From a virus (lineage: Duplodnaviria; Caudoviricetes), in IMG/VR virus record IMGVR_UViG_3300028048_000091, positions 42,705 to 106,704 of that record: 64,000 nucleotides of DNA. The stretch is one strand, 5' to 3'. Both the position numbers and the translations under genes were made by a program. The notes beneath the pieces were generated by a model. It saw only the letters and a list, made by a program, of their open reading frames with translations. It did no database searches and was not told where the DNA came from. Positions within the stretch are counted from its first letter, which is position 1, and each line of letters opens with the position of its first letter. Below are positions 9,830 through 10,061 of the stretch, in pieces.

Positions 9830-9985
9830 AGGCAACTATACAGGGTTTGACCCCATACGTTTCTTGCTTCGCAGGGTTCGTAGCCTCTTCCCTCCACAAG
9901 CTCTACACCCACTTGCCAATGGGCTATCCATAAATGGATTTTACTTAAATTGCGGTATTAAGACCCATCAAGGGGTCACGCTACA
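9830..9985 (-). ncRNA. Orphan TnpB omega/reRNA-like structured RNA
   Basis: AATACCGCA...GAGCTTGTGGAG...GAAGCAAGAAA scaffold matches the 3' ends of both tnpB genes in this window; several hairpins; ATATTTATAT motif directly upstream. Confidence 0.6.
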
Positions 9986-10061
9986 TATAAATATCACTTG
10001 GGGTCAAAAAGTATATAATTACCTATCTTAATATAAATATTGGTGGCCAACAAGTATAATG

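Follow-up and report, generated by a model that had tools for sequence, protein, structure and literature searches.

A tnpB-less omega-RNA scaffold within a probable miniature transposon at the SAM lyase leader of a phage

The window analysed here is a 64-kb part of a 106.7-kb IMG/VR virus record whose completeness is estimated at 27%. Around the stretch of interest all genes lie on the minus strand, in the order metK (10638-11828), an ORF of 188 aa (10062-10628), and a SAM lyase-like gene of 304 aa (8893-9807; Pfam PF23780, E 1.5e-8). The element described below sits in the 254-nt spacer directly upstream of the lyase gene, which itself is outside it, and is overlapped only by mechanical ORFs of 40-55 aa. 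A previous sequence-only reading of this DNA had described an orphan omega-RNA to which no tnpB is attached. This is borne out by our analysis, as the 188-aa ORF upstream belongs to no Pfam or PHROG family and shows no similarity to TnpB, and the idea of a tnpB remnant was dropped; any use of the scaffold therefore needs a TnpB supplied in trans. The tnpB genes which the same reading had placed at 14885-16147 and 29619-30881 are both real. These two in-window genes, tnpB1 and tnpB2, encode genuine TnpBs with a mutual identity of 34%, and the third tnpB of the record, outside the window, is of the tnpB2 type. A small ORF with a MerR-like HTH (..LKPILTSGGHRRYRESD..) precedes tnpB2-type genes at 30900-31316 (minus strand) of the window and at L170:5465-6975, an arrangement reminiscent of the HTH partner proteins that some TnpB branches are reported to have.

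The relatives of the scaffold are found in rumen MAGs of Rikenellaceae, Prevotella, and Paludibacteraceae, and the sequencing runs containing the region are bovine gut samples, so that the phage host is probably a rumen Bacteroidales. By blastn against a phage collection, metK alone had relatives and the rest of the region had none, and Rfam returned 0 families at gathering score over the window, with chance-level matches only around the element. The metK of L006 is 97% identical to that of the window, yet the spacer between metK and the SAM lyase gene is filled differently: it holds the 188-aa ORF and the miniature element in the window (9808-10637), and five other ORFs over 2.9 kb in L006 (1114-3992). 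This spacer is thus a variable spot, a hot spot of replacement. Toward its 3' end, the 188-aa ORF contains a segment of about 40 nt (10079-10119) that recurs in many unrelated contigs (four runs) with both flanks unlike; this segment is either a short repeated or mobile piece or a conserved peptide motif.

The boundaries of the element are marked by inverted and direct repeats. A repeat finder recovered two imperfect arms of about 25 nt, 9830-9855 and 9999-10024, with 20 of 26 nt complementary, and outside them lies an exact direct repeat of 8 bp, which reads TATCTTAA on the plus strand at 9823-9830 and 10024-10031. Between the two 8-mers, and with the same ends as elements found elsewhere, is a tnpB-less, MITE-like element of 193 bp (9831-10023, minus strand). 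In the orientation of the minus strand, it is preceded by the left copy of the target-site duplication (10024-10031, TTAAGATA) and followed by the right copy (9823-9830). Its left terminal inverted repeat (TIR), GGTAATTATATAC..TTTGACCCCA (9999-10023, minus strand), is 21/24 identical to the left end of the L178 element, a relative that encodes tnpB, and its right TIR (9831-9855, minus strand) consists of the last hairpin and the end of the scaffold. The core of both inverted repeats is the 10-mer TGGGGTCAAA / TTTGACCCCA, which, as previously noticed, occurs inverted at 9846-9855 and 9999-10008 and exactly twice in the 64 kb. The sequence-only reading took this 10-nt match for a guide and a target beside a promoter. 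It is instead the TIR pair, because it extends to 20 of 26 nt and is bordered by the exact 8-bp direct repeat, and its 3' arm lies inside the scaffold. Two other loci, L107 and L139, carry the same element (195 bp) in flanks that part from those of the window precisely at GGTAATT... and ...GTTGCC. This divergence at both ends fixes the element boundaries and places TGGGGTCAAA within the scaffold, in its last hairpin, and not 3' of it as had been thought: the scaffold ends with TATAGTTGCC at 9831, where the flanks of the homologous copies diverge. The element thus has the characters of a MITE, namely a length of 193 bp (below about 500 bp), a non-coding sequence, TIRs, a duplication of fixed length (8 bp), multiple unrelated loci, and a parent with the same ends.

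The insertion point is in the SAM lyase leader, 15 nt upstream of the ATG, which is 23 nt past the scaffold end. The ATATTTATAT motif that had been noted beside the stretch is present at two sites. One (9985-9994) is internal to the element, within the promoter-like block discussed below, and the other (10031-10040, minus strand) is native: it belongs to the flank, where it borders the insertion site, and aligns with ATATTTAT ahead of the SAM lyase gene in element-free relatives.

The strings on which the sequence-only reading was built are all present on the minus strand, where they belong to an omega-RNA scaffold (9831-9927) whose modules are complete and in the right order: hairpin 1 (9923-9908), core strand GCTTGTGGAG (9901-9892), hairpin 2, core strand GAAGCAAGAA (9870-9861), and a terminal hairpin leading to the 3' end. 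When the core pattern (GCTTGTGGAG, a gap of 12-40 nt, GAAGCAAGAA) was scanned over viral contigs, more than 119 loci were found, typically with a hairpin before and a hairpin plus a ..TAGTTCAC end after. As most of these matches lie directly behind tnpB 3' ends, the two strands represent a generic, widespread omega-RNA core. Patterns of hairpin 1 plus core added about 50 more loci from viral contigs, metagenomes, and genomes, the majority of them attached to tnpB. Within an alignment of 20 tnpB-attached RNAs, orphans left out (A5), the core stem has compensatory changes at 3 of its 4 pairs, and the overall share of paired cells is 94.8%; sliding the 3' partners lowers it to 33-54%. The covariance model based on this alignment (R1) matches the orphan over its full length (9927-9831, minus strand; model positions 1-106) with 91.5 bits and an E value of 3.5e-21; its second-best match, on the plus strand with 25 bits, falls on the left inverted repeat. 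The orphan is therefore a real tnpB-less omega-RNA scaffold, and it is of the family that we call TnpB3, being 85% identical to positions 1319-1415 of the L178 element.

The claim that this scaffold is the same as those of the in-window tnpB genes holds for the generic core strands, which are common to the tnpB2 RNA, and no further. R1 scores only 11.9 bits (E about 2) at the tnpB2 3' end and does not score the tnpB1 RNA, and BLAST of the orphan against the ends of both genes gave nothing significant. The 9-mer AATACCGCA, which had been equated with the same 9-mer of tnpB1, starts a hairpin abutting the core in tnpB1; its place in the orphan is some 50 nt farther upstream, within a decayed copy of the ..NAAIN.. 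coding sequence. The minus-strand RNA of the orphan folds at -65.7 kcal/mol, with a z score of -4.2 against shuffles, compared with -1.9 for the plus strand. RNAalifold on the tnpB-attached set recovered the core alone, hairpin 1 being misaligned between subfamilies. Where an omega-RNA overlaps the 3' end of its own tnpB, the orphan has only a decayed remnant of about 55 nt. Elsewhere in the window, a 39-nt fragment (29562-29600, plus strand) composed of GCAAGAAG, a hairpin, and TAGTTCAC corresponds to the 3' tail of a canonical omega-RNA and faces the right end of the tnpB2 element at a distance of about 6-12 nt; it is a second scaffold remnant without tnpB.

TnpB3 proteins have 375-386 aa, end with ..FDKQNLVGV, and are found in rumen Bacteroidales phages and MAGs. 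They are 40% identical to TnpB2 and 35% to TnpB1, and match the ISDra2 TnpB over residues 3-366 (E 6e-81). In the alignment, the RuvC D/E/D motifs (GIDLG / LEDL / DRDxNAA) are retained by TnpB1, TnpB2, and TnpB3 alike. Nothing thus points to a nuclease-dead repressor.

The TnpB3 genes reside in tnpB-only elements of 1.35-1.5 kb with inverted ends of 21-25 nt, GGNAAYNATATA..GTTGAC (L151, L166, L178, L180, L163, L183, and others). The L151 element has 1438 bp, 21-nt inverted ends (20/21), and the duplication TAATATAT; the L166 element has 1353 bp, inverted ends, and the duplication TTAATAGT; and the L180 element has 2116 bp, ends matching at 22/22, and the duplication TAATATAA. Among the 13 TnpB3 elements with both ends in hand, an 8-bp duplication is present in nine and absent in four. 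The base before the duplication is A in 8/8 and the base after it T in 7/8, indicating a symmetric A-N8-T target. The L178 element (1415 bp, tnpB of 375 aa) has ends almost identical to those of the orphan. Three of its segments can be aligned with the orphan: the left end (orphan positions 1-24), the block preceding the tnpB start (12-43), and the final 97 nt (99-193). Additional solo copies of the TnpB3 inverted ends, L178:171-196 and L178:3210-3235, bracket 3 kb that include the TnpB3 element, which suggests nested or composite insertions. The L180 element (L180:3368-5483), with its perfect 22-nt inverted ends, carries before tnpB an extra gene for a 251-aa protein resembling GIY-YIG homing endonucleases (PHROG 7168, E 4e-11). 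The TnpB of these inverted-end elements is close to that of ISDra2, which comes from a classical IS200/IS605 element.

Two further parts of the parent are retained in the miniature. One is a promoter-like block, ACTTTTTG-N9-TGATATTTAT with an internal ATATTTATAT (9985-10012, minus strand), 26/32 identical to its counterpart in L178, which precedes the tnpB start by about 20 nt. Among 14 distinct elements, 12 carry the block about 20-30 nt before the tnpB3 start, and it persists in three kinds of deletion derivative: the window type and, right before the scaffold, L187/L193 as well as L169. A similar block stands ahead of a phage gene at 31484-31510. The block of the element, which a sigma-70 scan did not pick up, may act as a promoter.

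The other part is a 5' module of about 55-57 nt (9926-9982, minus strand), a decayed tnpB 3' coding end that comprises the hairpins GACCC/GGGTC and ATCCA/TGGAT and a GCAAUU strand. It aligns with the ..DRDVNAAIN.. coding end of tnpB3 (AATACCGCAATTTAAG vs AATGCTGCAATTAACA) and is conserved at 91-100% in short copies, over its full or partial length, and at 87% in L172. Its first 34 nt are conserved at 91% in L240, a diverged copy without TIRs, and its hairpin shows a single compensatory change, from A-U to C-G, in L156. In the consensus fold of seven short copies, GCAAUU of the module is predicted to pair with the 3'-terminal AGUUGC. In the tnpB-attached set, the equivalent helix is paired at 85%, a share that drops to 5-48% on sliding, and its covariation is weak. 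For ISXfa1, a pseudoknot was tested in which the final scaffold bases pair with a strand located about 130 nt before them (PMC10711439), and the predicted GCAAUU/AGUUGC helix resembles it.

The element has moved as a unit. Short elements of 192-195 bp with the same ends and the same internal junctions are present at no fewer than three other loci (that is, at least three) with other duplications: L107/L139/L195 (AAAATAAA), L156 of a Paludibacteraceae MAG (TTTATTAT), and L175 (about AAAAAGAT). In run X5 (record 22), the contig covers just 9844-10024, so that the element is in yet another context there. Conversely, the relatives L004-L006 lack the element at the SAM lyase site while encoding a lyase 86% identical to that of the window. 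Their sequence before the ATG (ATATTTATcTTtAaAcATATTA...) corresponds to the left flank of the window joined to the right flank, with a single, similar copy of the 8-mer. Contigs of additional studies likewise carry the insertion at this site. Searches of viral contigs for the exact empty site gave 0 hits, both at this locus and at that of L107, and a pattern with both TIR cores had no exact match among them; no contig of the sequencing runs joins across the element, which was not taken as evidence on empty sites. In a diverged tnpB-less copy, L240:1450-1630 (contig C231 of a Paludibacteraceae MAG), the 5' module is the same, hairpin 2 is longer, the core stem has covaried (GCCTG/CAGG), and inverted ends are not recognisable; a gene lies 55 nt downstream of it. 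This copy is possibly a fixed or decaying relative.

Because the 106.7 kb of the record (about 27% complete) contain no TnpB3-type gene, their three tnpB genes being of other types, a nuclease partner must act in trans. Such genes exist in a related phage contig (G001) that shares tnpB2 at 85% DNA identity: of its three TnpB domain matches, two are full-length TnpB3-type genes and one is cut by the contig end. In three MAGs with scaffold copies, which may be incomplete, a TnpB3 protein search returned only a 62-aa remnant (in G002), and no TnpB3 was found in the Paludibacteraceae MAG that holds short copies (G004, likewise possibly incomplete).

The one mark of a MITE that is missing is an identified transposase acting in trans: no transposase with these inverted ends, and no transposase-bearing element with matching ends, was found. 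ISNwi1-type ends read ggnnatTAT and go with an 8-bp repeat. IS1595 was considered as the mobilising transposase and rejected; the truncated IS1595 gene of MAG G004 has no such end nearby, and the IS1595-family copies of 81 Bacteroidales genomes are bounded by different ends.

In TnpB systems, the guide is taken from the flanking sequence immediately beyond the right end (PMC10705468). By this flank rule, the putative guide template is a 16-nt stretch (9815-9830, minus strand) made of the duplication and 8 nt of the SAM lyase leader, and within the window this putative guide (9830-9815) matches only its own template at up to 2 mismatches. No TAM motif emerged beyond the single A before the duplication. 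There is no terminator-like site between the element and the SAM lyase ATG. Contigs from RNA libraries span the whole stretch; they could stem from DNA carry-over or long phage transcripts, and starts, ends, and strand are not readable from them.

Based on the above data, we propose, with good though not full confidence, that 9831-10023 is a non-autonomous miniature transposon that arose from a TnpB3-type element by internal deletion and was transposed as a unit. The deletion would have occurred within a 1.35-1.5-kb tnpB-only element of the rumen Bacteroidales and phage family with 21-25-bp TIRs and 8-bp duplications, leaving both ends, the promoter-like block, about 55 nt of decayed tnpB 3' end, and the complete omega-RNA scaffold, whose last hairpin doubles as the right inverted repeat. 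The resulting element would then have been transposed whole into the SAM lyase leader, beside the native ATATTTATAT, by a transposase acting in trans, the type of which looks like DDE. Once there, the retained block would drive transcription toward the SAM lyase gene, giving an RNA of scaffold plus flank, i.e., a ready omega-RNA with the insertion-site flank as guide; the read-through transcript would carry the SAM lyase message too. Loading would be possible only by a TnpB3-type nuclease from elsewhere, be it the rest of the phage genome, a co-infecting phage, or the host, and the expected effect would be the cutting of alleles without the insertion (homing or retention). The cutting of insertion-free alleles was also proposed for gene-less IS605 derivatives (PMC10055086). 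Of this scheme, the data show the identity and mobility of the element, a gene-less derivative of a TIR-bounded tnpB element with a complete scaffold, and we infer the making of the RNA, its loading, and the cutting. The previously suggested trans-acting RNA thus survives as a tnpB-less scaffold of omega-RNA type that needs a TnpB in trans, without the TldR- or tracr-L-like regulation of the lyase that had been attached to it. A stronger form of our proposal, which we regard as unlikely, is that the element is a hitchhiker made of guide RNA only: a MITE without nuclease gene that keeps promoter and omega-RNA, and for which TnpB3 from a co-resident element, a co-infecting phage, or the host cuts insertion-free genomes at the SAM lyase leader. 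In a variant of this, TnpB binding to the leader would couple SAM lyase output to the presence of TnpB.

The element may, alternatively, be inert selfish DNA, a MITE whose RNA part has no present function and whose scaffold survives as it forms the right inverted repeat and the copies are young; its sole effect would be a longer structured SAM lyase leader, perhaps with a replacement promoter. We hold this for possible, though not the expected outcome. The short copies are 90-97% alike, which leaves little time for decay; recent spread, and not selection, may therefore explain why the interior is conserved. The lack of a cognate TnpB3 in the record and in MAG G004, the existence of truncated and TIR-less copies (L167, L172, L154, L155), and the native motif at the insertion edge, to which the element brings a similar one, fit inertness as well. 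However, the promoter-like block and the whole scaffold have been kept in three independent deletion forms, the 5' module is conserved in the diverged copy, compensatory changes occur in the hairpin and in the core stem (L240), and TIR-less copies preserve the RNA part better than the left end, all of which argues against inertness. A cis-acting leader, in which the structured RNA or a TnpB bound to it controls SAM lyase translation, appears quite unlikely to us. What speaks for it is geometry only, in that an RNP on the guide region would adjoin the start codon and the path from the element to the ATG is free of terminator-like sites; the other copies are not consistently located before genes, a terminator-like hairpin follows L175, and the lyase is expressed in relatives without the element.

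The regulatory model of the sequence-only reading, according to which the RNA loads an in-window TnpB, binds 9999-10008 through the 10-nt match without cutting, and thereby regulates the lyase operon, is very improbable. The core strands shared with the tnpB2 RNA and the position directly upstream of the SAM lyase gene agree with it, but the 10-mer falls within a 26-nt TIR pair, inside the scaffold, and the match characterises the family, being retained by its copies at unrelated loci. In addition, R1 scores neither in-window RNA as a relative, TnpB1 and TnpB2 keep their RuvC motifs, and transcription from the internal block would put the left arm upstream of the RNA start. The fallback offered with that model, a closing stem or an IS scar, came closer, although the stretch is a transposed miniature element and not a scar formed in place. 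To a full tnpB element that once stood at this site and lost its gene there by deletion we give next to no credence: the decayed tnpB 3' end in the interior would be expected from it, but one and the same deletion product, junctions included, recurs at three or more further loci whose duplications differ, so that the deletion is older than the insertion here.

Several known systems share features with this element. PATEs are IS200/IS605 derivatives that lack genes and encode omega-RNAs which serve in trans (Meers et al. 2023, PMC10055086; Haloquadratum PATEs, PMC3119063). Like them, the present element is a protein-less miniature formed by core deletion of a tnpB element, with ends and guide scaffold kept and TnpB needed from elsewhere. 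PATEs have subterminal palindromes and neither inverted ends nor duplication, and are moved by a Y1 TnpA, whereas this element has 25-nt TIRs, an 8-bp duplication at A-N8-T, and a promoter-like block. Solo TnpBs inside inverted ends shared with DDE-transposase elements form branches DDE-1 to DDE-6 (Altae-Tran et al. 2023, PMC10691335). The TnpB3 parents are similar in being tnpB-only, with symmetric inverted ends and a tnpB 3' end less than 250 bp from the element end. They differ in that no DDE transposase with TnpB3 ends was found, and the window has the miniature derivative only. Fanzor reRNAs come from TIR/TSD transposons that reside in eukaryotes and in the viruses of eukaryotes (Yoon et al. 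2023, PMC10711439), and there too the guide-RNA scaffold runs through a terminal inverted repeat beside the target duplication; unlike the miniature element, Fanzor systems are eukaryotic or from giant viruses and have the protein gene present. The ISDra2 TnpB/omega-RNA complex (PDB 8BF8/8EXA/8H1J) is the solved enzyme to which TnpB3 is matched over residues 3-366. ISDra2 itself differs from the TnpB3 elements: it is of the classical IS200/IS605 type, has Y1 TnpA and TTGAT as its target, and shows neither TIRs nor a duplication. The last bases of the miniature's scaffold are predicted to pair with a strand about 120-155 nt upstream, which resembles the ISXfa1 pseudoknot (PMC10711439). With TldR and tracr-L, only the idea of a guide RNA used without cutting is shared; this locus has no nuclease-dead TnpB homologue and no guide-to-promoter match.

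Gene-less derivatives with omega-RNAs (PATEs), solo TnpBs with inverted ends, and scaffolds running through inverted ends (Fanzor) are thus already described. No description of a miniature derivative of the inverted-end TnpB type was found in the excerpts of the literature searched. What is new is a miniature of the inverted-end type that keeps a promoter-like block and a guide RNA, in a phage, at a SAM lyase leader. This result removes a tempting guide-to-promoter reading, the match being a pair of transposon ends. It also documents a TnpB family of rumen Bacteroidales and their phages with inverted ends, 8-bp duplications, and a scaffold doubling as transposon end, a family that repeatedly yields gene-less miniatures with promoter-like block and guide RNA. 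At the level of the phage, the anti-restriction (SAM lyase) locus of a large phage is seen to receive mobile-element traffic. If the hitchhiker reading were true, the element would be a nuclease-free drive between competing phages and, more generally, loading of such miniatures in trans would allow guide RNAs to spread as parasites of the nuclease.
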